A stretch of 64,000 nucleotides of DNA from Mustelus asterias (taxonomy: Eukaryota): assembly GCF_964213995.1 (NCBI RefSeq), contig NW_027590192.1:124001-188000 (forward strand), in the 5' to 3' direction. The first letter of the stretch is position 1. The number at the start of each line of letters is the position of its first letter. The position numbers and the translations under genes are program-made. Positions 4,091-63,397 of the stretch are shown in pieces. The notes beneath the pieces were generated by a model that was not told where the DNA came from, made no database searches, and saw only the letters and a program-made list of their open reading frames with translations.

Positions 4091-4765
4091 TCACTTGTGA
4101 ACTTGCTGGTGTTTCAGCAGCCGGGATGAAACGCTGAAACCCTTCCCACACTGAGAGCAGGTGAACGGCCTCTCCCCAGTGTGAACTCGCTGGTGTGCCT
4201 GCAGCTCAGATGGCTGAGTGAATCCCTTCCCACACTGAGAGCAAGTGAACGGCCTCTCCCCAGTGTGAATTCGCTGGTGTGCCCGCAGGGTGGATAACTG
4301 AGTGAATCCCTTCCCACACTGAGAGCAGGTGTATGGCCTCTCCCCAGTGTGAACTCGCTGGTGTGTCTGCAGGCTGGATAATTGAGTGAATCCCTTCCCA
4401 CACTGAGAGCAGGTGAACGGCCTCTCTCCAGTGTGAACTCGCTGGTGTGTCAGCAGGCTGGATGACCGTGTGAATCCCTTCCCACACTGAGAGCAGGTGA
4501 ACGGCCTCTCCCCAGAGTGAACTTGCTGGTGTGACTGCAGGTGGGATGACTGAGTGAATCCCTTCCCACATTGAGAGCAGGTGAATGGTCTCTCCCCAGT
4601 GTGAACTCGTTGGTGAATCCGTAAGCTGGAGAACTGATGAAATCCCTTCTCACACCGAGAGCAGATGAACAGCTTCTCCCCAGTGTGGCTGCGCCGATGA
4701 GCTTCCAGCTCTGATGGGGCTCTGTATCCCTTCCCACAGTCCGCACATTTCCATGGTTTCTCCAT
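4091..4765 (-). CDS. Z1: C2H2 zinc-finger protein, 8 fingers, 224 aa
   Basis: Uninterrupted CxxC...HxxxH units with TGERP linkers; ATG in caccATGG context at 4765; likely exon acceptor ttttccAG at 5117-5118. Confidence 0.88.
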
Positions 4766-5252
4766 GGTGCAGGTGTCCTTACCTCTCTCTTGGGTGGACA
4801 ATCAGTTGAAACTTCGTCCACATACACAACAAGATTACAGTCTCTACCCGCTGTGAATGGTGTGATATTTATTCAGGCTGTGTAACTGGTTAAAGCTCTT
4901 TAGTCAGTGCATTGGAACACTCTCACTCAAGTGTGGCAGTGTGTTGATGCATTTTCACTCACACTGACATTTCAAATCTTTTCAAATTTACAGACTGGAC
5001 AATCATTTCTCCTTCTGGATTCAAAGTCCGATGATATTGAAGTCCCAAGGAATATGATTCTGTCGCGTCTAGACGTGACGTTTGAGATTTCAGCCTGTGA
5101 TTCCTCTTTCAATATCCTGGAAAATTCGTTCACAAAAGTCATCAGTGTCAGTACAGGATAGAAATTCAGAACAGACAATTTCTATGGAACATTCTTTCCT
5201 CTCTCATTCCCCAAAAGCTGGAAATCTCCATCCCACACACTCTCTCCCCATT

Positions 5253-5440
5253 CTCAGCAGGTCTGGCAGCATCTGTATGGAGAGAAAAGAACTGATGTTT
5301 CAGAGCTTTGACAAAGGGTTATCTAGACAAGAAACATCAGCTCTTTTCTCTCCTTACAGATGCTGCCAGACCTGCTGAGATTTTCCAGCATTTTCTCTCT
5401 TGGTTTCAGATTCCAGCATCCGCAGTAATTTGCTTTTATA
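5253..5440. mobile_element. Short fold-back repeat (49-bp arms), probably Penelope-derived
   Basis: Arms 5253-5301 and 5331-5379 are reverse complements with 2 mismatches; related sequence at 61700-61795, 60888-60942 and 52020-52088. Confidence 0.7.
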
Positions 5441-6455
5441 AGGCTGCAGATACCTCCTCCCAAGTAACATGCGTGTGCCCAAGACATCACCACTTGTTTC
5501 CCTTATTTCTTTAGCACCCATGGTGCTCTCCGCAGTAAACACAGAGAAGTATTCATTACAAATCTCACCCATCTCCTGTGGCTCCACACACAGATGGCCA
5601 TACTGATTTTTAAGGGGATCTATTCTCTCTCGAGCCACCCTTTTACTCTTAATATAGCAAAAGAACCTCTTGGAATTTTCTTTAATCTTACCTGCCAGAT
5701 CCATATCATACCCTCTTTTTGTCCTCCTGATTTCCCTCTTCAGTATTTTCTTACACTTTTTATAGTCGGAGTGATTCACTTGTCCCCGATTGCCTAAACC
5801 CAATGTATGCTTCCTTCTTTTACCTGACCAGAGCCTCAATGTCCCTTGTCTGCCAGAGATCCCTAAATTTGCCATTCTTTCCCTTCATCTTAACAGGAAT
5901 ATACTGCCCCTGGATTCTTGATATCACACTTTTAAAACCTCCCATTTGCCAGTCATTCCTTTCCTTTCAAACAAACTCACCGAATCGACATCTGCTCGAT
6001 CCTGCCTCATGCCCACAAAAGTGGCCCTGCTCCAGTTTAGGGCCTTGACCTGTGGACCTGTCCTATCTGTTTCCAGAACTATTTTAAAACTATTGGTGCT
6101 CCCAATAGTGCTCCCAATACTGACACTTCAGTCACTTGCTCCACCTCATTTCTTCACTGTCTAATAGAAAGTGAGTCCAGGAATTGATGATGGAAAATGA
6201 GGAGCTGGGAGATGAATTGAACAAGTATTTTGCCTCGGTGTTCACAATAGAGGATACAGTTAAAACTCAGAAACAGCTGGAAATCAGAAAACAGGAGTGT
6301 GGGATGAACTCTGAAAAAGCACAATTCCCAGGGAAGTGGTCCTCAGCAAACTGTTGGAGCTGTGGGCTGGTGAGTCCCCGGGTCCTGCTGGGCTCCATTC
6401 CCGGGTCTGAACAGAGGGAGATAGTTGATGTTGTTCAATTTTCTAAACCGTCTGT
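5440..6455. mobile_element. Old CR1 fragments (minus strand ~5440-6160, plus strand ~6165-6455)
   Basis: ORF 5354-5875 has KIKENSKRFFCYIKSKR and EMGEICNEYFS; the start of ORF 6184 has DELNKYFASVFT. Confidence 0.75.
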
Positions 6456-6464
6456 CGCCATTCC

Positions 6465-6985
6465 CCACACTGCGCATGCTTCAGGTCCCGCCCCTCATTC
6501 ACTCCGATTGGTTGGAGGACCAGCCGCTCCCGCTCGGTCCTCCAGCCCCGCCCCCTCTTCCTATTGGTCCGGAGCCACCGTCAATCAGTCCCCGGGCATT
6601 GTGATGTGGAGCATGCGCAGTGTCATTGCTGTCCTTGGCGCTTGTTTGTCCCGGAGAAGCGGAGTCAGCGTTAGGCGGTGGCTGGGAGGATTTGGAAACA
6701 CTTTGTGGATCCGCAAACCCTTCAGAATCATTGTCAGCTCCCTGGTTTGCAGCTGCGGGGCTTCTCCCTCCCTCCCTCCCGGGAACAGGCCCAGGTTAAC
6801 GGCCCCATCCTGGCTCAGCCACTGGAGGATGGTTCACATCAGAGGATGGGGGAGGGGGACAATAAATAAGAGGTTACACTTTGGCCTCAAATCAATGAGG
6901 ACTCTGATCTCTGGGAAGGAAGGAAACCCTGGGAGGTGGGCGGGGAGGATTCACGAACACCCGCTGGAGGCTCCAACACCCCCAG
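6465..6985. promoter_or_regulatory. CpG-rich promoter cassette copy 1, between divergent Z1 and Z2
   Basis: NRF1-like TGCGCATGC/GCATGCGCA near 6471 and 6611 flank GC boxes (cccgcccc) and ATTGG (CCAAT) boxes; near-identical to 40030-40525 and 52670-53200. Confidence 0.7.
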
Positions 6986-7055
6986 TAAAAAGCTGCAGCT
7001 CCCAGGTTTGCAGCTTTTTCCCGGGAGGGAGTTGGGAAAGTTTTGTGGAGACAAT

Positions 7056-7570: not shown

Positions 7571-8564
7571 TTACATTGCTGATGAGAATTTTCATTTACT
7601 GATTTGGGAATTAATTCTTGGGAATAGTCATTCTGAAAATGACCATTAAAATGGGTTTTAATTTACCCCATAATGCCAGATTTCAGTTTGCATTTCAAAA
7701 TTGAACTGAGAATGTCTGGGAGCAAATGGTAAAATGAGGTTTGAGACACCAGCTGCAATTATTTTCTGTGACTGATGATACCTTTGTGCCTGTGCAGGAG
7801 GTAATTCCCCTGCTGTTGTGGCACAAATAAAATGGAGCTTTTCCAAGGAACAGGCCCATGTTAATGGTCATTGTGGTGTTTCATTGGTGAGCAGAGCATG
7901 AGTGCCCATTGTGGTAACAACAGAGTCAGTGGGGCTGCACGTCCCCTGACTTGGAAGGAAAATAATTGACTCCTTGATTGTACTCTCAATCTGCACATGG
8001 TCTGGAGGACTGAATCCAGCTGGAGGGCGAGGGAGCTGGGCTCAGAGTGGAGATGGGGCAATGAGTTTGATTTCAGCTCAGGGACAAGAGAGAGTGTGTG
8101 GGATGGGGATTACAGCTCAAGATAAATGAGATGGAGAAATGTTTCGTGGAAACTGAAATTGTCTGTTCTGAAGTAGTTTTTTAAAACTCTTTGTGCAGGG
8201 AACTAGAAGAGGAAGATTCACAGACAGGAAACTCAAACTAAACTTCACATCAAAGTCTGACAGCCACTGGATTCATCATGTGATGATTGTGATAAAGCTT
8301 TTGACAGTGGAGGGATAAATCGTTCCCTGTTTTGTCAGTGGAAGAAAATTTCAAAATTCAATGTGACAGAAAAAGAACTGAGACACACCCACACACCCAA
8401 GTGAGAGTGCTCCAGTGAACTGACTGTGGACAGAGCTTTAACCAGTTACATAGCCTGAAAAACATTACACCATTCACAGTGGGGAGAAACCATACACATG
8501 GTCTGTATGTGGATGAGGCTTCAACTAATCATCCATCCTGGGGAGACAGAAGGACAACAGCACC

Positions 8565-8900
8565 ATGGACAAACCGTGGAAATGTGAGGATTGTGATAAA
8601 GGATTCAATTATCCATACTTGCTGGAAAACCATAGACACAGTCACACTGGAGAGAGGCCATTCATCTGTTCTGTGTGTGGGAAAGGATTCACTATCTCAT
8701 CCCACCTGCTGTTACACCAGCAAATTCACACTGAGGAGAGGCCGTTCAGCTGCTCCACCTGTGGAAAGGGGTTCTCATGTTCATCCAACCTCACTGCACA
8801 TCAGCGAGTTCACACTGGGGAGAGATCGTTCACCTGCTCCTTGTGTGGGAAGGATTTTGCTGGGCCATCCAGTCTTTGGTGACAACGGTGAATTCACAAA
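8565..8900 (+). pseudogene. Z2: truncated C2H2 ZNF pseudogene (3 intact fingers plus 1 broken)
   Basis: MDKPWKC start; stops in finger 4 at 8880 and 8889; array ends where a CR1 begins at ~8903. Confidence 0.85.
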
Positions 8901-9870: not shown

Positions 9871-10409
9871 TACACAGGCCAATTTATCTTTCTAGGGATG
9901 AGTGTGTCTGAGAGGTATGCAACTGGAAAACATTTTCCATTCACCTCCTGCATTGCTGCAGTATAAAGAGATATTGTTCTCACTCTGCCAGCAGGGCTGT
10001 GGGATTAATTGGATAGATCTTAAAGACAGCCCGACTGGGCAGGATGTGCCAAATGGTTTCCATCTGTGATGTATCGTTCCACAAAACAGAATATTCAGCA
10101 CCAGGAGAAAGAAAGTGAAAGAAACCAGTCTCTGTGGGATTTACCCAACCAGTATGAGCACCTTCAGGAGAGCAGAGAGGAGGAATCCAGTGGGAAAAGT
10201 TTTAAAGACACTGGATATTCCCACAGGAGAGCACTGGTTTAAATCAATTTCAGAAATAGAGAATGGCAGCGCACAAATTCCGAGGAATGCATTTTTAAAA
10301 ATTATTTGATCTTAATTGCACAAGATAATTTTCTATTATTGTCTTTGACAATGACGCCGTTAATTCCCAGGTGCCCCTGCGGGTATGAAAGTGTCCTATT
10401 CATTCCACA

Positions 10410-10750
10410 GGAGTCCATTGCGCAGGCGCAATGCTATATCTGGAGCGTGCGCAGTGCCACTTTGCCCGGAGACCTGTGAGTGCGGGAGCGGCTTTTTTCA
10501 ACGGGTGAGTCGGTGGCGCTGCGGGAGAAATGGAGCCGGGAGTCGGGGCAGGGAGGGAGCTATGGCTTCACAAACATCCTCTGTAGGCCGCACGGCCCGA
10601 ATAAGACCCTGCAGGTCCTGGGTTTACAGCTCCAAGGCTTTTATCTCGGGAACAGGCCCCGGTTATCGGCCGCCATCTTGTTTCAGCGGGGAAGGAGAGC
10701 GCATGCGCCGCTGTCGGTGGCGGGTCACAATGGGCGTGGTTTCAGGGGCT
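10410..10750 (+). promoter_or_regulatory. CpG-rich promoter/first-exon module upstream of Z3
   Basis: TGCGCAGGCGCA at ~10419, GCGCATGCGC at ~10699, and YY1-like CCGCCATCTT at ~10670 within the gggaacaggccc..gtta.cggccgccatctt motif shared with other modules. Confidence 0.6.
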
Positions 10751-11405: not shown

Positions 11406-12396
11406 GGCCAACATCTGTGGGTAAAACACTTTCTTTTCTCCCCCTTTCCATTTCTTTTCTCATTCTGGGGAAAATTGGGGACTTGCAGCAACTGAAGGGA
11501 AATGAAGTGAATCCAGTCGGTATTTTCCACACATTGTTAGTCCAGTCAGATAGACATATATCTGTCTGGCAGCCTGCATGGAGATTTCCAGCTCTCTCTG
11601 TCCAGGACAGGAAGCAGTGAGCATGGATCTATCAATCAGCACCTACAGGAGAATTGGGAGGGTGAATATTAGATACAGCAGAGTGAGAATCGAGGGAGAG
11701 TGTGTGGGATGGAGATTTACAGCTCTTGCGTTGTAATATGATGCTGTAGCGATGTTATACATTTCCAGTCATAAAGTCATTACAGCACAGAAGGAATCCA
11801 TTCGGTAACTCGAGTCCATGCTGACTCTCTGTATAACATTCCAGTCCCATTACCACTCAATATCCCATTCTCCTGTAAGTTTATTTCCTTCAAGTGCCCA
11901 TCCACTTTCATTTTTAAATAGAATCCATAGATATGGATGGAGATTTACAGCTTTTTGGGACTGGGAGATGAAAGAATCTTCCATAGAAACTAGAATTGTC
12001 TGTTCTGAATTTCTATCCTGTACTGACACTGATGACTTTTGTAAACTCATTTTACAGGATATTTAAAGAGGAATCACAGACTGAAAACTCAAACGTCACG
12101 TCTCGATCTGACAGAGTCATACTCCTTGGGAGCTGAATATCATCGGACTTTGAATCCAGAAGGAGAAATGATTGTCCGGTCTGTCGATTTGAAATGTCAG
12201 TGTGACTGGAAAAGCATCAACACACTGTCACACTCGAGTGAGTGTGTTCCAATGCACTGACTAAAGAGCTTTAACCAGTTACACAGTCTGAATAAATATC
12301 ACACCATTCACAGCGGGGAGAGACTGTACCTGTGTTGTGTGTGGACGAGGCTTCAACTGATTGGCCACCCAAGAGAGAGGCAAGGACACCTGCACC

Positions 12397-13236
<840 letters not shown>

Positions 13237-19589: not shown

Positions 19590-20061
19590 GACTGGGGAAC
19601 AATGGGTGGGGGCGGGGCTCCCGGGTCCGCGCGCCTGAACCCGGAGACGTCACCGCGGAGCAGAGTGATTGCTATTGGGTGATTGAGGCAGGGCTCCATT
19701 GTGCCGTCACAATGACTCAGAGGGGCGTTCCCAGCACACAGTGTCCCATTGGCAGCAATATCACTGGTTACAGAAGCCGCACACTGCGGATTGGACACCA
19801 GCTCAGCGCGGCTGGCGGTCAGAGCCCCGCCCACCCCCACGCGGGCTCGGGTTCCGCCCCCTCATTGTCCACATGCGGCATATTGACCAATGGTTGCCAG
19901 GAGGACCGGATGGGCGATGGTCCTCCAGCCAATCAGAGTCCGGGCCTTGTGTCAATGGCCGCGCGGAGCTTCGTCCATTGTTGCTGCTGCTCCTCTCCCT
20001 CTGAATGAAGATTAAGCTTCAGACAGACTCAACCTTCCTCCTGTCTCCTACATCTGTGAGT
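19590..20061 (+). promoter_or_regulatory. CpG island, promoter and non-coding first exon of Z4
   Basis: GC boxes, several CCAAT/ATTGG sites; donor acatct|GTGAGT at 20056, homologous to acatct|GTGGGT at 11417 in Z3. Confidence 0.65.
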
Positions 20062-20297
20062 AAAACACTTTCTTTTCTCCCCCTTTTCATTTCTTTTCTC
20101 ATTTTGCACTTCAATTTTTAACTTCTGGGTCATCACTCGCTGCCTCAGTAAAGATTCTCCTCACATTCTTTATGTATCTGTAACCAGGTAATAAAGTGTA
20201 TTACACACACCATCAGTCTGCTCATTTATATCCAAATGTAAAACTGTAACGTGACTGTCAGCTTGAAGATTTTCAGCTCTCTGTGCCCACAACAGGA

Positions 20298-23006: not shown

Positions 23007-24188
23007 CCAGGACAGGAAGCAGTGAGCATGGATCTGTCAATCAGCCTGAATAGTATATATATTATATATTTCCAGTTATTCATCTCTTGCTTATTAGAAT
23101 CATTAGTCTTTGGATTTTTCTTCCACAGGGATCAGTGGAAGCTGAGGGTTATTGAAGATATTCGAGGATGAGTTAGATGGATATTACATTGATAAAGGAG
23201 TCAAGCGTCATGGAGAACAAGTGGGAAAATGGAGTGAAAGTTAAGATGAGGAGGGATTTCCTCACTCAAGGATGTGGTGTAGTTTTTGAATTCTGCGCTC
23301 CAGAGGACTGTGGAGCCTCAGTCATCAAATATTTTCAAGAGAGAGATTGGTAACTTTTGAGGCATTGAGCAACATGGGGGATAGAACATAGAAAAGCTAC
23401 AGCACAAACAGGCCCTTTGGCTCACAAGTTGCGCCGAACATGTCCCTACCTACGAGGCTTACCTATAACCCTCTATCTTACTAACTTCCATGATAGTTTG
23501 GGAAATAGTGGCGCTATGGAAATAGTGTGAGGTCGATCAGCCAATTCTCAATGAATGGTTGAGGCAGTTCAATGGGCTGAATGGCCAACTGCAGCTCCTG
23601 TTTCTTATGATTTATGTGTGGTGGACAGGAAGCAGTGAGCATGGATCTGTCAATCAGCCTCAATCAGCACCTTCAGGAGAATTGGGAGGGTGAATATTAG
23701 ATACAGCAGAGTGAGAATGGAGGGAGAGTGTGTGGGGTGGAGATTCACAGCTTTGGGGAATGAGAAAGGAAAGAATGTTCCATAGAAACTAGAATTGTCT
23801 GTTCTGAATTTCTACTTCTATTTCTAACTCATTTTACAGGATATTGAAAGAAGAATCACAGGCGGAAATCTCAAACGTCACGTCGAGATCTGACAGTCAT
23901 ATTCCTTGGGAGCTGAATATCATCGTCCTTTGAATCTAGAGGGAGAAATGATTGTCCAGTCTGTTGATTTGAAAAAAAATTCAAACTTCAGTGTGACTGG
24001 AAAAGCAGCAACACACTGCCACACTCGAGTGAGTGTGTCCAATGCACTGACTAAAGAGCTTTAACTAGTTACACAGCCTGAATAAATATCACACCATTCA
24101 CAGTGAGGAAAGACTGTACCAGTGTCCTGTGTGTGGACAAGGCTTCAACTCATTGTCCACCCAAGAGAGAGGTAAGGACACCTGTACC

Positions 24189-25241
24189 ATGGAAAAACCA
24201 TGGAAATGTGCGGATTGTGGGAAGAGATACAGAGTCCCATCAGAGCTGGAAGCTCATCGGCGCAGTCACACTGGGGAGAGGCCGTTCACCTGCTCTCAGT
24301 GTGGGAAGGGATTCGCTCTGTTAGCCACCTTGCAGAAACACCAGCGAGTTCACACTGGGGAGAGGCCATTCACCTGCTCTCATTGTGGGAAGGGATTCAG
24401 TCAGTTTTCCAACCTGCGGACACACCAGCGAGTTCACACTGGGGAGAGGCCGTTCACCTGCTCTCAGTGTGGGGATGGATTCAGAGCTTCATCCAGCCTG
24501 TGGACACACCAGCGAGTTCACACTGCGGAGAGGCCGTTCACCTGCTCTCAGTGTGGGAAGGGATTCACTCTGTCATCCAGCCTGCTGATACACCAGCGAG
24601 TTCACACGGGGGAGAGGCCATTCACCTGCTCTCAGTGTGGGAAGGAATTCACTCGGTCATCCAGCCTGCGGAGACACCAGCGAGTTCACACCAGGGAGAG
24701 GGCCTTCACCTGCTCTCAGTGTGGGGATGGATTCAGAGCTTCATCCAGCCTGCGGACACACCAGCGAGTTCACACTGGGGAGAGACCGTTCACCTGCTCT
24801 CAGTGTGGGAAGGAATTCACTCGGTCATCCAGCCTGCGGACACACCAGCACGTTCACACTGGGGAGAGACCGTTCACCTGCTCTCAGTGTGGGAAGGGAT
24901 TCAGAGCTTCATCGAGCCTGCTGACACACCAGCGAGTTCACACTGGGGAGAGACCGTTCACCTGCTCTCAGTGTGGAAAGGGATTCATTCGGTCATCCAG
25001 CTTGTGGAAGCACCGGCAAGTTCACACTGGGGAGAGGCCGTTCACCTGCTCTCAGTGTGGGAAGGGATTCACTCAGTCATCCCACCTGTGGAGGCACCAG
25101 CGACTTCACACTGGGGAGAGGCCGTTCACCTGCTCTCAGTGTGGGACGGGATTCAGAGCTTCATCTAGCCTGTGGACACACCAGCAAGTTCACATTGGGG
25201 AGAAGCCATTCACCTGCTCTGTGTGGGAAGCGGTTCAGTGA
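24189..25241 (+). CDS. Z4: C2H2 ZNF, 12 intact fingers; a 2-nt deletion near 25221 removes two more (relic to 25365)
   Basis: MEKPWKC at 24189; acceptor at 23838-23839; the shifted frame continues ...[20 protein letters not shown]...HQRVHE. Confidence 0.87.
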
Positions 25242-25711
25242 TTCATCCAGCCAGCAGAAACACCAACAAGTTCACACTGGGGAGAGACCGTTCAGCTGCT
25301 CTGTGTGTGAAAAGAGATTCAGTCTTTCATCCCAGCTGTTGAGACACCAGCGAGTTCACGAGTGATTCCAGTGGTCGATTCTGCTGTTATTGTTTCTGCT
25401 CTCAATTATATTGGTCAATGGGGAGGGTCGGAGGGTTTCTTTCTGCTGGACTGGCCGGTCTCACAACTTTGCTTCCAATGGCTGATGCTCTTTGAGTCTT
25501 GTTGTGAATACCTGGTTTCAAATTTCACACGGATCACAGAGTGACGGGTGTTAGGAAGTTCAGAGATATTTAGTCAGGATTTCTGTTTGAAACCCCCCCC
25601 AATGCCCATCCAATTTTCTTTGTAATTGTTTATTGTCTCCACTTCCTCCACCCTCGTCGGCAGCGAGTTCCACGTCATTACCATTCACTGCATCAAAATA
25701 TTATTCCTCAC

Positions 25712-36545: not shown

Positions 36546-36565
36546 TCAGAATGGGGGTCCGCACC

Positions 36566-36832
36566 CAGCCCCGCCCCTCATTCACTCCCATTGGCTGGAG
36601 GACGAGGCTCTCCCGCGCGGTCCTCCAGCCCCGCCCCTCATTCACTCCGATTGGCTGGAGGACCAGGCTGTCCCGCTCGGTCCTCCCGCCCCGCCCCTCA
36701 TTCACTCCGATTGGCTGGAGGACCAGGCTGTCCCGCTCGGTCCTCCAGCCCCGCCCCTCATTCACTCCGATTGGCTGGAGGACCAGGCTGTCCCGCTCGG
36801 TCCTCCAGCCCCGCCCCTCATTCTCTCCCATT
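36566..36832. repeat. 60-bp tandem repeat, ~4.5 copies, each with a GC box, a CCAAT box and a 12-bp inverted repeat
   Basis: Unit cagccccgcccctcattcactccgattggctggaggaccaggctgtcccgctcggtcctc at 36566, 36626, 36686, 36746 and 36806. Confidence 0.95.
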
Positions 36833-37161
36833 GTCTGGTCACTGGAGATAAATCAGCAGGGGAAACAAAACAGGATTTTAACCTCCTGAAGCCAATTCAA
36901 GTCTGAGATGAAGAGGAATTTCTTCTCTCAGGGCGTTGTGAGTTTTTGGAATTCCTTGCCAGAGAGAGCTATGGGGGCAAAATCCTTGTGGTATATTTAA
37001 GACTGAGTTAGATTTTTGATCAATAAGGGAATCAGGGGTTATGGGGAAAGGGCAGGAAAGTGGATGTGAGGAATGTTGGGTCAGCCATGATCCTATTGAA
37101 TGCTGGAGCAGGCCTGAGGGGCCGATCTGCCTTCTCCTGTTCCTATTTCTTTTTGTCTTAA

Positions 37162-39949: not shown

Positions 39950-40570
39950 GGGAGATCCGGGCTCAGCCCCGCCTCTCATTCACTCTGATTGGTTGGGGGA
40001 CCAGCCGCTCCCGCTCTGTCCTCCAGCCCCGCCCCTCATTCACTCCGATTGGTTGGAGGATCAGCCACTCCCGCTCGGTCCTCCAGCACCGCCCCCTCTT
40101 CCTATTGGCCCGGAACTGCCGTCAATCAGTCCCCGGGCATTGTGATGTGGAGCATGCGCAGTGTCATTGCTGTCCTTGGCGCTTGTTTGTCCCGGAGAAG
40201 CGGAGTCAGCGTTAGGCGGTGGCTGGGAGGATTTGGAAACACTTTGTGGATCCGCAAACCCTTCAGAATCATTGTCAGCTCCCTGGTTTGCAGCTGCGGG
40301 GCTTCTCCCTCCCTCCCTCCCGGGAACAGGCCCAGGTTAGCGGCCCCATCCTGGCTCAGCCACTGGAGGATGGTTCACATCAGAGGATGGGGGAGGGGGA
40401 CAATAAATAAGAGGTTACACTTTGGCCTCAAATCAATGAGGACTCTGATCTCTGGGAAGGAAGGAAACCCTGGGAGGTGGGCGGGGAGGATTCACAAACA
40501 CCCGCTGGAGGCCCCAACACCCTCAATAAGACCCAATGGTTTTATTGTCAGTCTGCAGACAGCAGCTGGA
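39950..40570 (+). promoter_or_regulatory. Promoter cassette copy 2, upstream of Z6 and Z7
   Basis: About 2.5 copies of the 60-bp unit, GCATGCGCA at 40152; only about 3 differences from 6601-6980. Confidence 0.7.
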
Positions 40571-41203: not shown

Positions 41204-41763
41204 GAACTGAACCCAGACACAGGAGAGGGAGGGAGAAAACTGGGAGTGCAGGAAAGAAATGGCGGAGATGGTTTGGATTTCAGCCTTGGGAGGATGGAGA
41301 GTGTGTGGGATGGGGATTTACAGATTTGGGGGAATGAGAGAGGAAGAAATATTCCAGAGAATTAGAATTGTCTGTTCAAAATTTCTATCCTGGACTGGCA
41401 GTGATTAATTTTGTAAATTCCTTTTACAGGTGAGGCGTGGAAACATCACATCAAAATCAGACAGAGTCTCAATTTATCAGGGTCTGAATATCCTCAGACT
41501 TTGAATGTGGAAGGAGAAATGAGGTTGTTTGTTCTGCCTGGAGAAGATTTCAAACATCAGTGTGACTGGAAACGCACCAAGATACACACACAACCCAAGT
41601 GAGAGTGTTCCAGTGAATTGACTGTGGAAAGAGCTTTATCCAGTTACGCAGCCTGAAAAAACATCACACCATTCACAGCAAGGAAAAACTGTGCACGTGT
41701 TCTGTGTGTGGGCGAGTCTTCAACTGATTGTGCAACCTGGAGAGACACAAGGATACCAGCACC

Positions 41764-42687
41764 ATGGAGAAACCATGGAAATGTGGGGACTGTGGGAAAG
41801 GATTCAGTTACCCTTCCCTGCTGGAAAACCATCGGCGCAGTCACACTGGGGAGAGACCGTTCACCTGTTCTGTCTGTGGGGAGGGATTCATTCAGTCATC
41901 TGGCCTTTGGTCTCACCAGAGAATTCACACTGAGGAAAAGCCATTCACCTGCACCTCCTGTGGGAAGAGGTTCAGGCATTCTTCAGCACTCACTGTGCAC
42001 CAACGCAGTCACACCGGGGAGAGACCATTCATCTGCTCCGTGTGTGGGAAGGGATTCACTCAGTCATTCCACCTGCTGTCACACCAGTGAGTTCATACTG
42101 GGGAGAGGCCGTTCACCTGCTCCGACTGTGGGAAGGGATTCACTGGGTCATCCCACTTACTGTTACACCAGCGAGTTCACATTGAGGAGAAGCCATTCAG
42201 CTGCACTGACTGTGGATGGAGTTTCAGACAGGCATCCTCCCTCATTGCACACCAGCGAATTCACACTGGGGAGAGACCGTTTACTTGCTTTGTGTGTGGA
42301 AAGGGATTCACAGCTTTACCCACCCTGCTGAGACACCAGAAAATTCACACTGAAGAGAAGCCATTCAGCTGCACTGACTGTGGAAAGAATTTCAGGCAGT
42401 CATCCAACCTCACTGCTCACCGACGCACTCACACTGCAGAAAGAGCATTCACATGCTCCGTGTGTGGGAAGGGATTCAATCGGTCATCCGACCTCTCTGC
42501 TCACCAGCGAGTTCACACAGGGGAGAGGCCATTCACTTGCTCCGTGTGTGGGAAAGGATTCGCAAAGTTTTTCAACCTGCTGGCTCACCAACGCACTCAC
42601 ACTAAGAGGCCATTCAACTGCTCTGTGTGTGGGAAGGGATTCACTCAGTCACAATGACTCCTGAGACTTCAGCAAGTTCATAAGTGA
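41764..42687 (+). pseudogene. Z6: 11-finger ZNF with nonsense codons
   Basis: Frame conserved, but TGA at 42088 (CGA>TGA in HQRVH) and at 42655. Confidence 0.85.
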
Positions 42688-43039
42688 CTGCAGGGGTTGG
42701 ACTCTGCTGGTATTGCTGCTGTTCAGTATTGATAGTCTGACAATATTTTATTTCTGCTGATAACAAATCCCATAACTAGCTGGAATTTAATATTCTGGAA
42801 GTGTCACTGATTTTCAGGGCTGCAATGTCACTTTTTAAAAGCACCACCAGTGATCTTCCCCCTCAATTGAAGAACTCTCAACAGGAACCTGTTTGGAATA
42901 AAATTATGAACTTTTGCTTCAATTTCACAGCATATTCAAATGTGAGGATTTGCAGTTGGAAAACTGAAACCAAACATCACATCAGGATCAGACAGAGTCG
43001 CCCAGTTTATCGTAATATGCGTATCATTGGATTTTGAAC

Positions 43040-43849
43040 ATGGAAAGAAAAAGCACCGCTCACAGTGGGGAGAAACTGTACACGTGTTCCGTGTGTGGAC
43101 GAGGATTCAGCCGTTTATCTGGCCTGTCAAAACATAAATGCAGTCACGGTGGGGAGAAATTGTGGAAATGTGAGTATTGTGGCAAGGGATTCAGTTCCCC
43201 ATCAGAGCTGGAAATTCATCGACGGTGTCACACTGGGGAGAGACCGTTCACCTGCTCCGAGTGTGGGAAAGGATTCACTCAGTTGTCCCACCTGGTGAGA
43301 CACCAGCGAATTCACACTGGGGAGAGACCATTCACCTGCTCTGTGTGCAAGGTGGGATTCACTCAGTCAACCCACCTGGTGTCACACCAGCGAGTCCACA
43401 CGGGAGAGAGACCATTCACCTGTTTTGTGTGCAAAATGGGATTCACTCAGTCAACCCACCTGGTGACACACCAGCGAGTTCACACTGGGGAGAGACCATT
43501 CACCTGCTCAGAGTGTGGGAAGAAATTCAGTCGGTCGTTTCACCTTCTGATTCACCAGCGAATTCACTCTGGAGAGAGACCATTCACCTGCTCTGAGTGT
43601 GAGAAGGCATTCATTACATCAACAGAACTGTTGACACACCAGCGGATTCACACTGAGGATAACTCGTTCACCTGCTCCAAATGTGGGAAGGAATTCGCTA
43701 ACTCTTCTAACCTGATCTGCCATCAACGGATTCACACTGACGAGAGACCTTTTAAATGCCCAGACCGTGGAAAGTGCTTTAAAAGTTTTGGGAACTTGAC
43801 CCATCAACGGGTTCACACTCGAGTTCAGATGCTTTCACTGTGGGACTGA
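43040..43849 (+). CDS. Z7: C2H2 ZNF, 8 intact fingers, decayed tail (relics to ~43970)
   Basis: ATG at 43040 ([12 protein letters not shown]); acceptor tttcacAG at 42929-42930; finger 9 lacks its second Cys. Confidence 0.78.
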
Positions 43850-43859
43850 GTTCAGATAA

Positions 43860-44057
<198 letters not shown>

Positions 44058-44291
44058 TAGTATTCTGAGTTTTTAAAAAAAAATCAACTTTGCTTTAATT
44101 TTTGAATGACTGCATCTTCATTTGGGAGGCTGGGATTATCCCCGTTTCGAGGGAACTAAGGAATAGACCATAAGCCGTAGGAGCAGCATTCGGCCATTCA
44201 GCCTTCATTATAACAATGATCCCATTGTGATTTCTGCTGGTTGGGAAATGTGCGATATTAACGCCAGTCTGTCTTTCTTTAATTCCCTTCA

Positions 44292-49669: not shown

Positions 49670-49960
49670 ATTTCCTTCCTATGGCGGCGCTCTTACCCAG
49701 CATTCGCAGCGAGAGAGAATGTGCCGTATTGTCACAATGGGAGCCGCTTGCGCAGGCGTAGTACCTGATTCTGAGTGGAGCATGCGCTGTGCGGATTCGG
49801 ACTGGCCCATGCGCAGTGTGGGTGCTGGAGCTGCAGGGAGGCGGGGGAGTGCAGAGGCTTCAGAAACAGCCAGTGGAGGAGGCCTCAAAACCCAGAATAA
49901 GAAACCCCCCCGGGCCCGAGTTTGCACCGACCCGGGGGGTAATTGCAGCAGCTCTACAAT
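49670..49960 (+). promoter_or_regulatory. CpG-rich promoter module upstream of Z8
   Basis: ATGGCGGC at 49681; TGCGCAGGCG, GAGCATGCGC and CATGCGCA motifs. Confidence 0.6.
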
Positions 49961-50603
49961 CGGGGAGGTGGTGGTAAAATCAGTGACACAGCCTAATGTT
50001 GTGGGGATGGGTTCAAGTCCCATCATGGAGCTGGGGGAGATTTAAATAGAATTCATAAAACGCTGGAAAATCTGGAATATAATTTCACTTGAGTAACCAT
50101 TACAGCTGTGAACAATTTTAAAAACCCATCCTGTTTATTCATGGGAATCTGCTGTCTCTCCATAGACTTGTCAACATGCGATTCAGCCTCTAACTGCCCT
50201 CCTCAGGGGCAGGAAATAAATGCTGGTCTTGGCAATAAAACCACATCACATGAAACAGTGAAGGAGAAACACTGATGGACTTGGGTTAATGGCTGTCATC
50301 TTTCTCGGGGGCAGGACACAGGCACGGCTATCACTGTCCCTGTGACAAAATGTGAATTTCTATCCTGGACTGACACTGATAGATTTTGGAGTCTCCTTTT
50401 CCAGAGGGTGAGAAGGGGAGGATTTACACACAGTAAACTCAAACCAAGAGAAATATTTGCTTCAATTTTTAACTTTGGACTTTTTTTTAAACAGGATATT
50501 AGAAGTGCAGGAGTGGAAGGGAGAAAACTCAAACCAAACATCGCATCAGGATCTGACGCTATCGCCTAAATTATTGTAATCTGAATATCATTGGGTTTTG
50601 AAC

Positions 50604-51641
50604 ATGGAAGGGGAAAGCACGGTTATCAGTGGAGAGAAACCGTACACGTGTTCTGTGTGTGGACGAACATTCAGCCGATCATCTGGCCTGTTGAAACATA
50701 AATGCAGTCACAACAAGGAGAAACAATGGAAATGTGGAGACTGTGGGAAGAGATTCAGATTCCCATCTGAACTGAAAACTCATCGACACAATCACACTGG
50801 AGAGAGACCATTCACCTGCTCTGAGTGTGGGAAGGGATTCACTACCTCATCCATCTTGCTGACACACCGGCGAGTTCACACTGGGGAGAGACCGTTCACC
50901 TGCTCCAAGTGTGGGATGGGATTCATTTGTTCATCCCATCTGCTGAAACACCGGTGGGTTCACACTGGGGAGAGGCCATTCAACTGTCATGAGTGTGGGA
51001 AGGGATTCGCTACCTCATCAATCCTGCTGACACACCAGAGAGTTCACACTAGAGAGAGACCATTCAGATGCTCTGATTGTGGGAAGGGATTCCCTACCTC
51101 TTCTATCCTGCTGAAACACCAGCGAGTTCACACTGGAGAGAGGCCGTTCACCTGCTCTGATTGTGGAAAGGGATTCACTGATTCATCCTACCTGCTGAAA
51201 CACCAGAGAATTCATAACAGGGAGAGGCCATTTATCTGCACCGAGTGTGGGAAGGGATTTACTCAGTCATTCAACCTCCTAAAACACCAGCGAGGTCACA
51301 ACGGAGAGAGGCCGTTCACCTGCTCTGAGTGTGGGAAGGGCTTCAGTCAGTCATTCATCTTGTTGAAACACCAGCGAGTTCACACTGGGGAGAGGCCATT
51401 CACTTGCTCCAGTTGTGGGAAGGGATTTATTGATTCATCCACCCTGCAGAGACACCAGCGAGTTCACACCGGGGAGAGACCATTCACCTGCTCTGATTGT
51501 GGTAAGAGATTCAGTCAATCATCCAACCTGGTAAAGCACCAGCGAATTCACACTGGGGACAGGCCATTCACCTGCTCCGTGTGTGGGAAGGGATTCACTC
51601 AGTCACCTCACCTGCTGAAACACCAGCGTGTTCACGAGTGA
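50604..51641 (+). CDS. Z8: C2H2 ZNF, 12 fingers, intact
   Basis: ATG at 50604 ([14 protein letters not shown]); acceptor acAG at 50493-50494; same subfamily as Z7. Confidence 0.9.
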
Positions 51642-52610: not shown

Positions 52611-53560
52611 GGATTCAGTTCTCCAGCTCCTGTCTGCAGACTGACAATAAAACCAATGGCTCTTATTGGGGGTGTTGGGGCCTCCAGCGGGTATTTGTGA
52701 ATCCTCCCCGCCCACCTCCCAGGGTTTCCTTCCTCCCCAGAGATCAGAGTCCTCATTGATTTGAGGCCAAAGTGTAACCTCTTATTTATTGTCCCCCTCC
52801 CCCATCCTCTGATGTGAACCATCCTCCAGTGGCTGAGCCAGGATGGGGCCGTTAACCTGGGCCTGTTCCCGGGAGGGAGGGAGAAGCCCCGCAGCTGCAA
52901 ACCAGGGAGCTGACAATGATTCTGAAGGGTTTGCGGATCCACAAAGTGTTTCCAATTCCTCCCAGCCACCGCCTAACGCTGACTCCGCTTCTCCGGGACA
53001 AACAAGCGCCAAGGCCAGCAATGACACAGCGCATGCTCCACATCACAATGCCCGGGGATTGGTTGACGGCAGCTCCGGACCAATAGGAAGAGGGGGCGGG
53101 GCTGGTCCCCAACCAATCGGAGTGAATGAGGGGCGGGACTGGAGGACCGAGCGGGAGCGGCTGGTCCTCCAACCAATCGCACTGAATGAGGGCCCGGACC
53201 AATAGGAAGAGTTCCCTATTCTTTGCATGGGAGAGATGCACATGCGCAGTAAGCAACGGCGTTCGCCGCGTGGGTGAAAGCAACTGGAGAGAAGTTCCTC
53301 TGTCTCATCAGCAGCCGGTAAGGATGCAGAAACATAGAGGGAGCAATGGAAGCGGCGGATGGACGTAGAGGGTTTCTAAATATCTGGTGAAGGCCTCAAA
53401 CCTCGAATATGAGCCCGTAGGTCCCGTGTTTGCAGTTTCGGGTCTTTGTCCCGAGACGAAGCTCAGGTTAACGGCCGCCATCTTGATCCAGCGGAGAGCA
53501 GAGCGCACGCGTTGGTGTCTTGGTGACGCAACCGTGACTGGGCGGGTCTTTGTGCTTCTG
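52611..53560. promoter_or_regulatory. Bidirectional module: cassette copy 3 (minus) plus a rightward module upstream of Z9
   Basis: 52611-53200 is the reverse complement of the 39950-40580 cassette; CATGCGCA at 53241; CCGCCATCTT at 53475. Confidence 0.68.
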
Positions 53561-57325: not shown

Positions 57326-57542
57326 CAGCCACGTAATTCTTTGTAAACTTATTTTGCAGGAAATAGAAGAGGAGGATTTGCAGTCTGGACAAACAAATCT
57401 CACGTCAGACAGAGTCAATCAATTCATTGGGATTTGAAGATTTGTGCATCTGAAGGGATTTAATTGACCATCTCAGTTGGAAACTGGTGAGAATCTGTTT
57501 CCTTGCTCCTCCTGTGGGGAGGGATTGATACAGCTGGAAAAC

Positions 57543-58748
57543 ATGCTGACACGACAGCGAGCTCGCAATAGTGAGAGTTCATCCACCTGCTCCGTGTGTG
57601 GGAAGAAATTCATGTGTTCGTCCAACCTGCTGGCTCACCAACTCGATCACATTATTCAGAAGCCTCTTCAAAGCTCTGACTCTGGGGAAAGCATTGAAAC
57701 CTCTGAGGAACAGGCCCAACACCAGCTCCTTCACACTGACGAGAGACCGTTCAGCTGCTCCCACTGCGGGAAGAGGTTCAGCCAGTCCTCCCGCCTTGCA
57801 GAGCACCAGCTCCTTCACACACACGAGAGACCGTTCAGCTGCTCTCACTGTGGGGAGTCATTCAGCGACTCAGTGCATCTCACTGAGCACCAACAAGTTC
57901 ACACCAAGGACAGGCCATTCAGCTGCTCTCAGTGTGGGAAGAGATTCACTCAGTCCTCCCACTGCACCGTTCACCAACAGATTCATTTTCAGAAGAGACA
58001 TTTTAAATGCTTTAAATGTGAGAAGACCTTCAAAAGAAGGATTAGTCTGCTGAGACACCAGGGCACTCACACTGGGGAGAGGCCATACGTTTGCCCTGTG
58101 TGTGGGAAAACATTTACTTGTTTGCAGCATCTGCTAAGTCACCGGCCTATTCACACCGGGGAGAAGGCATTCAGCTGCTCTGTGTGTGGGAAGGCTTTCA
58201 CGGAGTCATCCAGCCTCCGGAGACACCGCCGCACTCACACAGGGGAGAAGCCGTTCTCCTGCTCCATTTGCGGCAAAAGATTTGCTCAGTTTTCCTACTG
58301 CAATCAACACCAACGCATTCACTCTGATAAGAGACCTTTTCAATGCTCAGAATGCAATAAGACCTTTAAAAGAAGTGATGATCTGCTGAAACACAAACAC
58401 ATTCACACCGGAGAGAGGCCGTTCCTGTGCTCCGTGTGTGGAAAGGGATTCGCTCAGTCGTCTGGCCTGCTGAGACACCAACGCATTCACACCGGGGAGA
58501 AGCCGTTCACCTGCTCTGTGTGTGGGAAGGGATTCACTGATTCATCCTATATGCTGAAACACCAGCGAGCTCACACTGCGACAGAACCGTTCACCTGCTC
58601 CCTGTGTGGGAAGGGATTCACTGATCCATCCCGCCTGCAGAGACACCAGCGAGTTCACACTGGGGCAAAACCTTTCAACTGCTCCATGTGTGGGAAGGGA
58701 TTTAATCAGTATTACAGCCTGCTGAAACATAGACGACTTCATGTGTGA
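57543..58748 (+). CDS. Z9: divergent C2H2 ZNF, ~13 fingers plus 2 degenerate N-terminal fingers
   Basis: Frame open from 57477; first ATG at 57543 (start uncertain); acceptor ttttgcAG at 57358-57359. Confidence 0.85.
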   Translation: MLTRQRARNSESSSTCSVCGKKFMCSSNLLAHQLDHIIQKPLQSSDSGESIETSEEQAQHQLLHTDERPFSCSHCGKRFSQSSRLAEHQLLHTHERPFSCSHCGESFSDSVHLTEHQQVHTKDRPFSCSQCGKRFTQSSHCTVHQQIHFQKRHFKCFKCEKTFKRRISLLRHQGTHTGERPYVCPVCGKTFTCLQHLLSHRPIHTGEKAFSCSVCGKAFTESSSLRRHRRTHTGEKPFSCSICGKRFAQFSYCNQHQRIHSDKRPFQCSECNKTFKRSDDLLKHKHIHTGERPFLCSVCGKGFAQSSGLLRHQRIHTGEKPFTCSVCGKGFTDSSYMLKHQRAHTATEPFTCSLCGKGFTDPSRLQRHQRVHTGAKPFNCSMCGKGFNQYYSLLKHRRLHV

Positions 58749-60884: not shown

Positions 60885-60944
60885 GGAATCTCTCTCCACA
60901 GTTGCTGTCAGACTTGCTGAGGTTTTGCAGCATTTTCTGTTTTG

Positions 60945-61115
60945 AAGTCAGTGCTTTGCTGTGTTGTCCCTGTGCTCCATCCCCACTCTGATTGTATTGG
61001 AGCCTGTGTGTGTCACTGTTACACTCAGAGTAAGTCAGTGCTTTGCTGTGTTGTCTCTGTGCTCCATCCCCACTCAGATTGTATTGGAGCCTGTGTGTGT
61101 CATTGTTACACTGAG
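60945..61115. repeat. 87-bp direct repeat, 2 copies
   Basis: aagtcagtgctttgctgtgttgtc... at 60945 and 61032. Confidence 0.9.
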
Positions 61116-61154
61116 ACTCTGTCACTGTTATTATTGGACAAACAGCAAGCCACC

Positions 61155-61545
61155 GTCACAATGCCCGGCTGATTGACGGTAGCGCGGACCAATGGGAAGA
61201 GAAGGGGCTGGAGGACCAGCCTTTCCCGCTCGGACCTCCAACCAATCACAGTGAATGAGGGGCGGAGCTGGAGCATGCGCATTGTGGGTAATGGGGACGG
61301 AGACGGGCTGTTTTTTCGGCTCGGAGATAGATTAGCGGTGATTGACGGTACGGAGGGGGCGAGGGATCTCGCGGGTGGACGGAAACGCTGCGTAAGCAGG
61401 TTGTGTCAGCCACGAACCTCGGTAAAGAGCTTCACGGACCCAGTTTGTACCGAGCGGTACCGCAGCTCCTCATGGTCGGGCCGTGTTCATGGCCGCCATC
61501 TTTATTGGGGGCAATATGCAACAAGGCGCATGCGCAGGCCGGCAT
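61155..61545. promoter_or_regulatory. Promoter module upstream of Z10
   Basis: Cassette core in minus orientation (CCAAT, GGGGCGG), GAGCATGCGCA at 61271, CCGCCATCTT at 61493, GCGCATGCGCA at 61526. Confidence 0.65.
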
Positions 61546-62635
61546 CGTTTTAGGGGGTAATATTGTCAATGAGTGGGAGGAGCTTGTTCCCCAGTGTTCA
61601 GAATGGAGACAACTTGTCCATCAAACTGCATCAACCCTCTGAGTCCCAATGTCTTATTGACGAGGCAGAGCGGTGGCAGAGAAGGAAAGAAAGGGAAATA
61701 GCTTTGACAAACGGTCATCTGGCCTCAACGTCAGCTCTTTTCTCTCCTCACAGATGCTGCCAGACCTGCTGAGATTTTCCAGCATTTTCTCTTTTGGAAA
61801 GGGAAATAAATTCTGCTTTCCAGATCCCACTATATCATGGGATTTCTTTCCCATTCATCTTCTGTTCCACCATCCTTATAGGCAGCGAGTTCCAGATCAT
61901 GTGCTCTCCCTACCCAAGTATAAATCTTCCTCAAATGCCTGCTCTATCACGATTCAAATAATGTCCTGTATATTACACTTGTATCCAGTATTATAGACAT
62001 CTGTCTGGCAGCCTGCATGGAGATTTTCAACTCCCTGTGTCCAGGACAGGCAGCAGTGAGCATGGATCTGTCAATCAGCCTCAATCAGCACCTTCAGGAG
62101 AATTGGGAGGGTGAATATTAGATACAGCAGAGTGAGAATGGAGGGAGAGTGTGTGGAATGGAGATTCACAGCTTTTGGGGAATGAGAGAGGAAAGAATGT
62201 TCCATAGAAACTTGAACTGTCTGTTCTGAACTTCTATCTTGTACTGACATTGATGACTTTTGTAAATTCCTTTTACAGGATATTAGAAGGTGAGGATTTA
62301 CAGACAGAAATCTCAAACCAAACGTCACATCAATATCTGACAGAGGCCTCAATTCGTCGGGACCTGAATATTATCGACCTTTGAATCCAGAATGGAAATG
62401 TTTCTCTGTTCTGTCTGCTTCAGGAGATTTTAAATTTCAGTGTCACTGGAAAAGCACCGAGACACATACACACCCGAGTAAGAGTGCTCCAGTGCACTGA
62501 GTGTGGAAAGAGCTTTAACCAGTTACACAGCCTGAAAATACATCGCAGCATTCACAGCGGGGAGAGACTGTACCCGTGTTCTGTGTGAGACTTAACTGAT
62601 TGTTTAACCTGGAGAGTCACAAGGACACCCGCACC

Positions 62636-63397
62636 ATGGAGAAACCGTGGAAATGTGGGGACTGTGGGAAAGGATTCAGTTTTCCATCTCAGCTGGAAAT
62701 TCATCGACGCGGTCACACTGGGGAGAGGCCGTTCACCTGCTCTGTGTGTGGGAAGGGATACACTCAGATAATTGATTTACAGAGACACCAGCGAGTTCAC
62801 ACTGGGGAGAGGCCGTTCACTTGCTCTGAGTGTGGGAAAGGATTCACTCGGTTATCCAGTCTGCAGAGACACCATCGATTTCACACTGGGGAGAGACCTT
62901 TCATCTGCTCTGTGTGTGGGAAGGGATTCACTCAGTTAATTGATTTGCAGAGCCATCAGCGAGTTCACACTGGGGAGAGGCCGTTCACTTGCTCTGTGTG
63001 TGGGAAAGGATTCAGTGTGGCATCAGGCCTGCGGAGACACCAGTTAGTTCACACTGGGGAGAGGCCGTTCACTTGCTCTGTGTGTGGGAAAGGATTCAGT
63101 CAGTTGCCCTACTTGTTGAGGCACAATGTCACTCACACCCAAGAGAGACCCTTTAAATGCTCTGACTGTGGGAGGGATTTCAAAAGCTCTCAGCTAATGA
63201 TGTCCCACCAGCGCATTCACACTGAGGAGAGACCTTTCAGCTGCTCTCACTGCACAAAGAGATTCAGATCGTCATCTGCCCTGCGGACACACCAGCGAGT
63301 TCACACTGGGGAGAGACCATTCACCTGCACCGTGTGTGGGAAGGGATTCACTCAGTCATCCCGACTGCAGAAACACCAGCGAGTTCACAAGTCATAG
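62636..63397 (+). CDS. Z10: C2H2 ZNF, 9 fingers, intact
   Basis: MEKPWKC at 62636; acceptor at 62277-62278; stop supplied by the adjacent CR1 tail. Confidence 0.9.

Follow-up and report, generated by a model that had tools for sequence, protein, structure and literature searches.

What kind of gene cluster carries zinc fingers and apparently nothing else? The question is raised by a stretch of 64,000 nucleotides (nt) of the Mustelus asterias genome (assembly GCF_964213995.1, contig NW_027590192.1, positions 124,001 to 188,000, forward strand), hereafter the window, in which ten arrays of C2H2 zinc fingers, here called Z1 to Z10, lie at 4091-63397. A reading made from the letters alone (the sequence-only reading) had proposed a birth-and-death cluster of finger-only genes, translated from a start codon in a former finger linker. 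The explanation that we favor, with fair confidence, is a birth-and-death cluster of elasmobranch-specific, finger-only C2H2 genes with a recruited start codon and variable, DNA-binding fingers. The architecture taken by itself, that is, finger-only proteins, a start in a linker and dead fingers in the leader, is very likely correct. It agrees with the sequence, with our selection tests and with the gene models of other sharks, although for the transcripts of this species we infer it.

A six-frame scan of the window returned 97 C2H2 matches, 96 of them inside the ten arrays and one out of frame in the Z10 leader, which bears out both the number and the span of the arrays as first proposed. The arrays consist of C-x2-C-x12-H-x3-H units joined by TGEKP-type linkers, the organization of tandem C2H2 genes, and Pfam assigned zf-C2H2 to all ten array open reading frames (ORFs), with zinc-finger families as the only strong matches. 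Two word-index protein searches were made (175 and 362 candidates scored, the best 120 of each listed; a biased sample, rich in chimeric models), and among the matches listed the nearest proteins came from Scyliorhinus, Chiloscyllium, Heterodontus, Cetorhinus and Mustelus, at 72-78% identity. The sequence-only reading had missed that five of the ten arrays are damaged: Z2 ends beside a fragment of a long interspersed nuclear element (LINE), Z6 has a TGA in its fourth finger, and Z3, Z4 and Z7 are frameshifted near their 3' ends. Z1, Z5, Z8, Z9 and Z10 are intact.

A splice-acceptor module lies 5' of every array, and its profile recovers all ten, along with an orphan copy on the minus strand (56892-56749) and two partial copies. 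In each gene the whole array is thus contained in a single last exon behind a common acceptor, the splicing itself being predicted from sequence. The leader, from this acceptor to the ATG, measures 334-366 nt in Z1 to Z4, Z6 and Z10, 151 nt in Z5, 109 nt in Z7 and Z8, and 183 nt in Z9.

Within the window no effector domain was found of the kinds that we looked for. Profiles of KRAB and SCAN, home-made from tetrapod proteins, recovered all of the held-out controls (14/14 KRAB and 7/7 SCAN) and detected neither domain when the window was scanned in all six frames (lowest E 1.3 for KRAB and 0.069 for SCAN), with the limit that a KRAB of ancestral type would score lower with a profile of modern ones. 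Pfam reported no KRAB, SCAN, BTB or SET domain in the 243 sense-strand ORFs that lie 5' of the arrays, out of 592 stop-free ORFs of at least 38 residues outside the arrays and the large LINE blocks; the PR/SET domain expected before the array in a PRDM9 gene is among the domains not detected in this set. Among the protein matches listed, no precomputed KRAB, SCAN or BTB family was attached to a shark or ray protein, and three skate proteins are PRDM9-like. The lack of KRAB and SCAN that had been noted by eye is thus confirmed by profile and Pfam searches, and that of BTB within the ORFs given to Pfam.

The leaders close the remaining route. Stops in the finger frame interrupt all ten, the last of them lying 39 nt 5' of the ATG in Z1, Z2, Z3, Z6 and Z10, 123 nt in Z4, 36 nt in Z5, 27 nt in Z7 and Z8, and 78 nt in Z9. 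Between this stop and the ATG there is no AG in Z7 or Z8, and the AGs found elsewhere are all purine-flanked and of a strength that is not shared among the genes; a pyrimidine count separates such AGs poorly from the main acceptors, and cryptic use of one is thus possible. Because in-frame stops are present in all ten leaders, no upstream exon can fuse to an array via the common acceptor, and a coding upstream exon in frame with the array, the trait of the FiNZ genes of cyprinid fish, was not found in any of the ten.

Where, then, would translation begin? In Z1 to Z6 and Z10 the ATG lies in what was a finger linker, in the context ACC-ATG-G in all seven; the context in Z7 and Z8 is AAC-ATG-G. 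The finger that is a fossil in the other genes is still intact in Z7, and in a codon alignment the intact finger of Z7 and Z8, which ends His-Gly-Gly-Glu-Lys or His-Asn-Lys-Glu-Lys, lies opposite x-Thr-Met-Glu-Lys in the others. Met therefore stands in place of the Gly of the TGEKP linker, and the second His of the old finger has been lost. The claim of a linker start holds for these seven genes, although Z2 begins with MDK and Z5 with MGK, and the loss of the His had been overlooked. An Arg codon of Z7 and Z8 (CGT or CGA) aligns with a leader stop position that reads TGA in four genes, TAA in one and TCA in one; a CpG transition would be a simple route to the stop nearest the ATG.

The leader itself is partly made of dead fingers. 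In a shuffle test of six leaders, the second finger slot upstream of the start was supported in all six (p=0.003) and the nearest slot in five of six (p<=0.03), and the third slot gave p>=0.06 in all six. With nhmmer we found two finger remnants per leader in Z2, Z4, Z6 and Z10 and one in Z1, Z3 and Z9. Of the "about three" dead fingers originally described, two are thus supported and the third, legible by eye only, is weak. Similarly, the description of the 5' untranslated region (UTR) as made of fossil fingers is correct only in part: the exon opens with some 115 nt that do not derive from fingers, and it is probably preceded by a separate first exon.

The fossils evolve without regard to frame. 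In the six-gene alignment the leaders contain 18 gap blocks, 17 of which are not a multiple of three, and the first 270 coding nt contain none. In pairwise comparisons the leaders are as alike (identity 0.68-0.91) as the neighboring ends of the introns (0.66-0.91), and no less alike than third codon positions (0.63-0.88). The ratio of nonsynonymous to synonymous change (dN/dS) is 0.68 in the old frame of the fossils; the two remaining frames give 1.17 and 0.70, and the intron gives 0.62-1.01. Since the value is not frame-specific, there is no coding constraint on the fossils. The fossil leader is a neutral relic. We considered that it might be a functional element and rejected this for want of frame-specific constraint, and we also rejected read-through or selenocysteine insertion at its stops, which are accompanied by frameshifts. 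The mutation rate of the epaulette shark, 7e-10 per base per generation (PMC10587355; papers are cited here and below by PMC accession), is low enough to make long survival of a neutral relic plausible. In the leader a coding sequence has clearly turned into UTR and has been inherited by a whole gene family.

We would assemble these observations as follows. Each unit would have a housekeeping-type promoter, a first exon that is probably noncoding, an intron and a last exon with the full array. In the ancestor of the main subfamily, nonsense changes would have killed the front fingers, and translation would have shifted to the ATG in the next linker. Each gene duplication copied the dead fingers along, and these decay neutrally, slow substitution in sharks presumably keeping them legible. 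A ribosome would scan past the short upstream ORFs to the ATG in its strong context and produce a protein of 8-13 fingers, the variable ones binding DNA, and duplication, finger shuffling and loss would renew the repertoire.

Among the coding fingers, variation is concentrated at a few helix positions. Entropy is 2.7-3.4 bits at -2, -1, +3, +5 and +6 and low in the scaffold, and positions +1 and +2 are mostly Ser (61/95 and 74/95, respectively). The homogeneous scaffold that had been described is therefore present, but the variable helix, described as running from -1 to +6, is limited to those five positions. Fingers within an array are 68-84% alike. On a minimum spanning tree of 66 fingers, the ratio of divergence at nondegenerate over four-fold sites (K0/K4) was 0.46 (0.37-0.57) for the scaffold without its zinc ligands and 0.30 for the linkers, as against 1.51 (1.21-1.93) for contact residues -1, 2, 3 and 6 and 1.97 (1.56-2.47) for -1, 3 and 6. 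By the Nei-Gojobori method, 74 fingers gave 0.27 for the scaffold and 0.84-1.05 for the contact and helix sites. The finger pairs in these estimates share nodes and are not independent, silent sites may be homogenised, and the two methods differ. Purifying selection on the scaffold is clear; positive selection at the contact residues is no more than suggested by the K0/K4 values.

Because the contact residues change fast, gene-specific binding of DNA is the most likely role of these fingers, and we think it probable that each protein recognizes sites of its own. For the targets we can argue by analogy. Across animals the numbers of zinc-finger (ZNF) genes and of retroelements correlate regardless of the accessory domain, the primary function being left open (PMC10547256). 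In view of this correlation repeats are the most likely targets, and we tentatively suggest, as a possibility short of a firm expectation, that the proteins bind repeats or retroelements and repress them through a finger-recruited partner or by occlusion. The same genes could be functional in other ways, the proteins binding RNA or host promoters or acting as decoys, or the arrays serving in cis as DNA that nucleates heterochromatin. No repression domain is present, many helices have Ser, Leu or Thr at contact positions, and papers on H3K9me3 at ZNF 3' exons exist (PMC4939920, PMC2999557); yet the change is focused on the canonical DNA contacts -1, +3 and +6, and the same pattern has been reported for families that bind transposable elements (TEs) (PMC10547256), so that we regard functions of this kind as unlikely.

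If a partner is recruited by a finger, there is one that might do so. A conserved, atypical finger beginning W-K-C is present once in nine of the ten genes, as the first or second finger of the array, and is the basis for reading a finger as the effector. In a comparison set of 28 such fingers, including 19 from 18 fetched proteins (14 from a named shark or skate and four without a species name), Pro is found at +1 in 26 and Glu at +5 in 24; Glu at +5 occurs in none of the other 86 fingers of the window. The dN/dS of the first coding finger, the W-K-C finger, is 0.27 (0.14-0.58). To judge from its residues, an acidic helix with a Pro and with hydrophobic residues at -1 and +6 suits DNA contact poorly. 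Protein-binding C2H2 fingers are well known, as in Ikaros and FOG-1, and the W-K-C finger is a candidate cofactor-binding module. It could be imagined that sharks use hundreds to thousands of repeat-recognising ZNFs without a separate effector, in which the W-K-C finger, made N-terminal once the front fingers died, recruits a corepressor as KRAB and FiNZ do, but this is a speculative and rather doubtful extension. At the other end of the arrays, a late finger with an F-K-C start and an F-K-S-S helix recurs among the 3' fingers of Z7 and Z10 and in proteins P0026 and P0239, and most genes have a common sequence just past the stop codon. This suggests that fixed N- and C-terminal fingers flank a variable core.

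The arrangement extends well beyond Mustelus. The start motif K-x-W-K/E-C-x-x-C is present in 14 of 236 fetched proteins, all 14 from a named shark or skate, and five proteins from three shark orders start at that Met (one each from Pristiophorus, Scyliorhinus and Chiloscyllium, two from Mustelus). Thr occupies the Met position in five fingers in four models and in one further match, and in all of these unrelated sequence has been spliced in front. Fossil fingers together with the loss of the ATG would explain many of the chimeric shark models, in which predictors splice unrelated exons onto ATG-less members. Three of the 27 matches to a profile of the exon start (see below) end exactly at FQTSV, at the stop in the most upstream fossil finger, and two of these are RefSeq models, from Pristiophorus and Heterodontus. 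The shared start and the FQTSV stop indicate that the arrangement is common to squalomorph and galeomorph sharks, which separated more than 200 million years ago. Two Hemitrygon models (P0128 and P0135) have a start Met inside a finger helix, possibly an independent case in rays or an annotation habit.

The exon start also bears on a second rival explanation, that these genes belong to a family with a short, lineage-specific N-terminal module like the FiNZ of carp, encoded either in a small coding first exon or by an acidic exon-start peptide of about 38 residues that some members translate and these ten genes have lost. The first 36-38 codons of the last exon do encode an acidic, Ser/Thr-rich peptide, which is in the finger frame in Z4, Z5, Z7, Z8 and Z9 and is interrupted by stops. 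A profile of this peptide matched 27 proteins of 1.84 billion representatives, 25 of them genuine; P0248 and P0253 contain unrelated repeats and were dropped. In at least eight of the 25, including the Pristiophorus isoforms, the peptide continues in frame and without a stop into the fingers, and two models start with Met-Val right before it. FiNZ itself has 28 residues, is acidic and matches no known domain (PMC10547256), and Pfam would miss an analogue. Nevertheless, stops break the frame before the ATG in all ten genes of the window, the dN/dS of the exon-start frame there (0.65, 0.42-0.97) is the same as in an alternative frame (0.67), and P0154 and others read the same DNA in another frame. 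When 18 N-terminal pieces were compared all against all, one shared motif was found, and it is promoter-derived; the sequence before the peptide differs from protein to protein, being intron read-through, promoter sequence or pieces of LINEs. Twenty-seven matches are few for so large a collection, although its clustering at 50% identity collapses the family. Pfam reported no family besides fingers in the matches (best five families per protein; long matches such as P0238 could hide more), and in a word-index search the exon-start peptide of P0178 matched nothing but P0178. We therefore consider a lost or hidden N-terminal module quite unlikely; the peptide may be an old coding linker.

Several observations weigh against the finger-only cluster that we favor. 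Half of its genes are damaged, and the methods disagree on positive selection: the Nei-Gojobori value for the contact residues is near 1 (0.84; bootstrap 0.89-1.26 against all-codon dS), within the neutral range. Each fossil-bearing leader contains two to six upstream ATGs, and in Z2 three of these overlap the main start. The exon-start peptide that is open in other sharks must be counted here as well, as must two models (P0251 and P0050) that carry the promoter module described below in the opposite orientation. Gene predictors take the first ATG of a long ORF, and matching starts in other species are for this reason not independent. An exact-sequence look-up in the protein collection found none of the ten predicted proteins, and the first exons, splice junctions, start codon and expression in Mustelus asterias are deduced from genomic DNA. 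Of 22 sequencing runs listed in a search, 18 are presumably RNA, with shares of 0.08-0.21, and four of unknown kind, with 0.53-0.57; these shares carry no information on expression or splicing. That the cluster is largely junk, a duplicating, concertedly evolving repeat of dead or dispensable genes in which helix variation means relaxed constraint, would suit the damaged arrays, the eleventh unit without fingers, the contact-residue dN/dS of about 1 by one method and the duplication of fingers within arrays (168-bp periods in Z7 and Z10), but this is quite unlikely. Across six genes the first 270 coding nt have no indel, next to a leader with 18 gap blocks; scaffold (K0/K4 0.46), linker (0.30) and first finger (0.27) are constrained; every unit has kept its promoter motifs and a start in strong Kozak context; and the family is found in distant shark orders.

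The upstream parts of the genes are consistent with a separate first exon. At 1-4 kb 5' of the arrays lie CpG-rich modules with CCAAT boxes, GC boxes and candidate donors (Table 1), together with sites that we take to be NRF1-like and YY1-like. RefSeq models from Pristiophorus (three isoforms), Heterodontus, Scyliorhinus (two isoforms) and Carcharodon join a homologue of the promoter module, in the orientation we would predict, to the array exon (tblastn E 9e-9 and 6e-8, an 8/8 match, and E 0.003), and they have no protein domain in common there. The first exon would thus appear to be noncoding. The modules at 6487-6988, 40028-40529, 35962-36115 and 52663-53200 are 89-99% identical to each other, as against only 75% identity between the adjoining leaders of Z2 and Z6, indicating that promoters were recently duplicated or converted separately from the coding exons. 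A tandemly repeated 60-bp unit, which contains a CCAAT and a GC box, has 4.6 copies at 36565-36838 and 2.2 at 39964-40095, and its copy number varies among promoters. These repeats and the 97.6% identity of two copies had raised the idea of a young long terminal repeat (LTR), which we dropped: homologues are found in the first exons of distant sharks, and neither LTR ends nor a TATA box could be seen.

Table 1. Arrays, leaders and promoter-like modules in the window, in order of position
Feature	Position	Strand	Remarks
Z1 coding array	4091..4765	-	8 fingers, intact; start MEKPWKC
Z1 leader, last exon	4766..5116	-	acceptor 5116; fossil fingers; 11 in-frame stops
Promoter-like module between head-to-head Z1 and Z2	6448..6988		CCAAT and GC boxes between two NRF1-like sites; candidate donor 6794; probably bidirectional
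Z2 leader	8199..8564	+	fossil fingers
Z2 coding array	8565..8882	+	3 fingers, then broken; LINE fragment from about 8904; likely pseudogene
Promoter-like module, Z3	10380..10740	+	NRF1-like, YY1-like; candidate donors 10475, 10504, 10661
Z3 leader	12058..12396	+	fossil fingers
Z3 coding array	12397..13236	+	8 in-frame fingers; frameshifts scramble the last two
Promoter-like module, presumably of Z4	19600..20060	+	GC box, CCAAT; candidate donor 20055
Z4 leader	23840..24188	+	fossil fingers
Z4 array	24189..25365	+	12 in-frame fingers up to stop 25241; 2 more past frameshift
Z5 coding array	32870..33802	-	11 fingers, intact; start MGKPWKC
Z5 leader	33803..33953	-	short; fossil fingers mostly deleted
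Doubled promoter-like module, Z5	35962..36850	-	contains 60-bp CCAAT/GC-box repeats, 4.6 copies; candidate donors 36317, 36035
Promoter-like module, Z6	39964..40529	+	97.6% identity to 6487-6988; candidate donor 40335
Z6 leader	41430..41763	+	fossils still in the same frame as the array; three stops among fossils
Z6 array	41764..42657	+	10 fingers; TGA 42088-42090 in finger 4
Z7	42931..43975	+	ATG 43040; 8 fingers; 3' end decayed; without its own promoter module
Promoter-like module, Z8	49680..49970	+	NRF1-like sites
Z8	50495..51641	+	ATG 50604; 12 fingers, intact
Two-sided promoter-like module	52663..53520		right side 5' of Z9; candidate donors 53317, 53466
Z9	57360..58748	+	divergent; first in-frame ATG 57543 in a degenerate finger; 13 fingers
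Promoter-like module, Z10	61156..61550	+	CCAAT, GC box, NRF1-like, YY1-like; candidate donors 61391, 61421
Z10 leader	62279..62635	+	fossil finger 62493-62555 with all four zinc ligands, out of frame
Z10 coding array	62636..63397	+	9 fingers, intact

How does the cluster compare with known systems? It is a variant of the lineage-specific tandem ZNF clusters, interesting because the family as a whole lacks an effector and has kept the W-finger. With the KRAB-ZNF genes of tetrapods and the coelacanth it shares tandem clusters, an array in the last exon, TGEKP-type linkers, a conserved scaffold with variable contacts, and frequent pseudogenes; unlike those genes it has no KRAB in any frame and no route for fusion of an upstream exon, so that recruitment of TRIM28 does not apply by that route. 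PRDM9 is similar in its homogeneous tandem finger DNA and its fast-changing contact residues, and the PRDM9-like skate proteins turned up among the matches listed. The window lacks SET and KRAB, however, and the PRDM9 minisatellite is far more uniform than shark fingers that are 68-84% alike within arrays. Like the FiNZ-ZNF genes of cyprinids, the shark genes are lineage-specific, clustered, made of two parts with the array in the last exon, and KRAB-independent (PMC10547256). In FiNZ genes the upstream exon encodes 28 acidic residues, whereas in the shark genes it is apparently noncoding and stops shut off the leader. Repression of TEs by FiNZ genes was demonstrated by knock-down (PMC10547256), whereas the shark cluster is known from its sequence. 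Mammalian C2H2-ZNF genes of the effector-less ("none") class also have arrays without a conserved accessory domain, and loss of such domains by degeneration is documented, although the human ones are more often singletons (PMC2443715); the shark cluster consists of finger-only genes throughout, and these have in common an internal start and a first finger peculiar to the family.

In the literature, the whale shark paper reports that KRAB-box families were lost in cartilaginous fishes (PMC8455134), and they are reported absent or lost also in PMC11603059. Supplementary file 2 of Wells 2023 (PMC10547256) gives 475-3586 ORFs with at least five fingers per genome for the eight cartilaginous-fish genomes compared here; the present cluster is very probably part of these uncharacterised expansions. 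The words shark, catshark, cartilaginous and chondrichth- do not appear in the main text of that paper, and neither there nor in supplementary file 2 did we find a gene structure, start site or family definition for the shark ORFs. For the KRAB-like and FiNZ proteins of ray-finned fish, TRIM33 has been proposed as cofactor, the whale shark being mentioned for PRDM9 only in the available text (PMC11603059, PMC10380595). Ancestral-KRAB genes with a single exon are described from the coelacanth in a paper whose available text does not mention sharks (PMC8835667), and the available parts of PMC4592553 and PMC11620358 contain nothing specific to this shark family. Neither MEKPWKC nor a second, ten-letter peptide query occurred in any paper in the literature searched, which mostly does not cover subscription journals, and a finger-only shark family with this start motif was not described there. 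The shark ZNF expansion is thus already counted in print, and its architecture was not found described.

The ZNF repertoires of cartilaginous fishes are among the largest counted in vertebrates, yet KRAB-ZNFs are missing from them. With a start motif that is diagnostic and a first finger that is conserved, this family makes it testable whether control of repeats by ZNFs needs a fused effector, a question that is open for most animal ZNF families. The common start would offer a single target for family-wide knock-down, as FiNZ did in zebrafish.

Some further units and repeats in the window deserve mention. The orphan acceptor belongs to the start of an eleventh unit (56710-56892, minus strand), with a leader start and no fingers downstream. 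The partial acceptor-module copies lie 5' of Z8 (50352-50447) and of Z9 (56264-56337), and in P0241 and P0249 from other sharks the exon start is likewise present twice. Z7 begins about 270 nt past the end of Z6 (42657-43040) behind its own acceptor, and could serve the Z6 transcript as an alternative last exon.

The DNA between the arrays contains ORFs for LINE-type reverse transcriptase and endonuclease, and other repeats. A near-complete LINE at 14600-18840 has an endonuclease/reverse transcriptase ORF of 1025 residues, and a 5'-truncated copy in the opposite orientation (44290-46520) is 97.6% identical to it, indicating recent activity. At 20290-23010 there is a broken reverse-transcriptase element, presumably Penelope-like from its appearance, in which Pfam RVT_1 scores below the cut-off; its ends recur as short repeats, one of them within the intron of Z6, with what looks like a target duplication near 40575 and 41205. 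A 38-bp tandem repeat occupies 47207-47977, with 20.3 copies and 99% matches.

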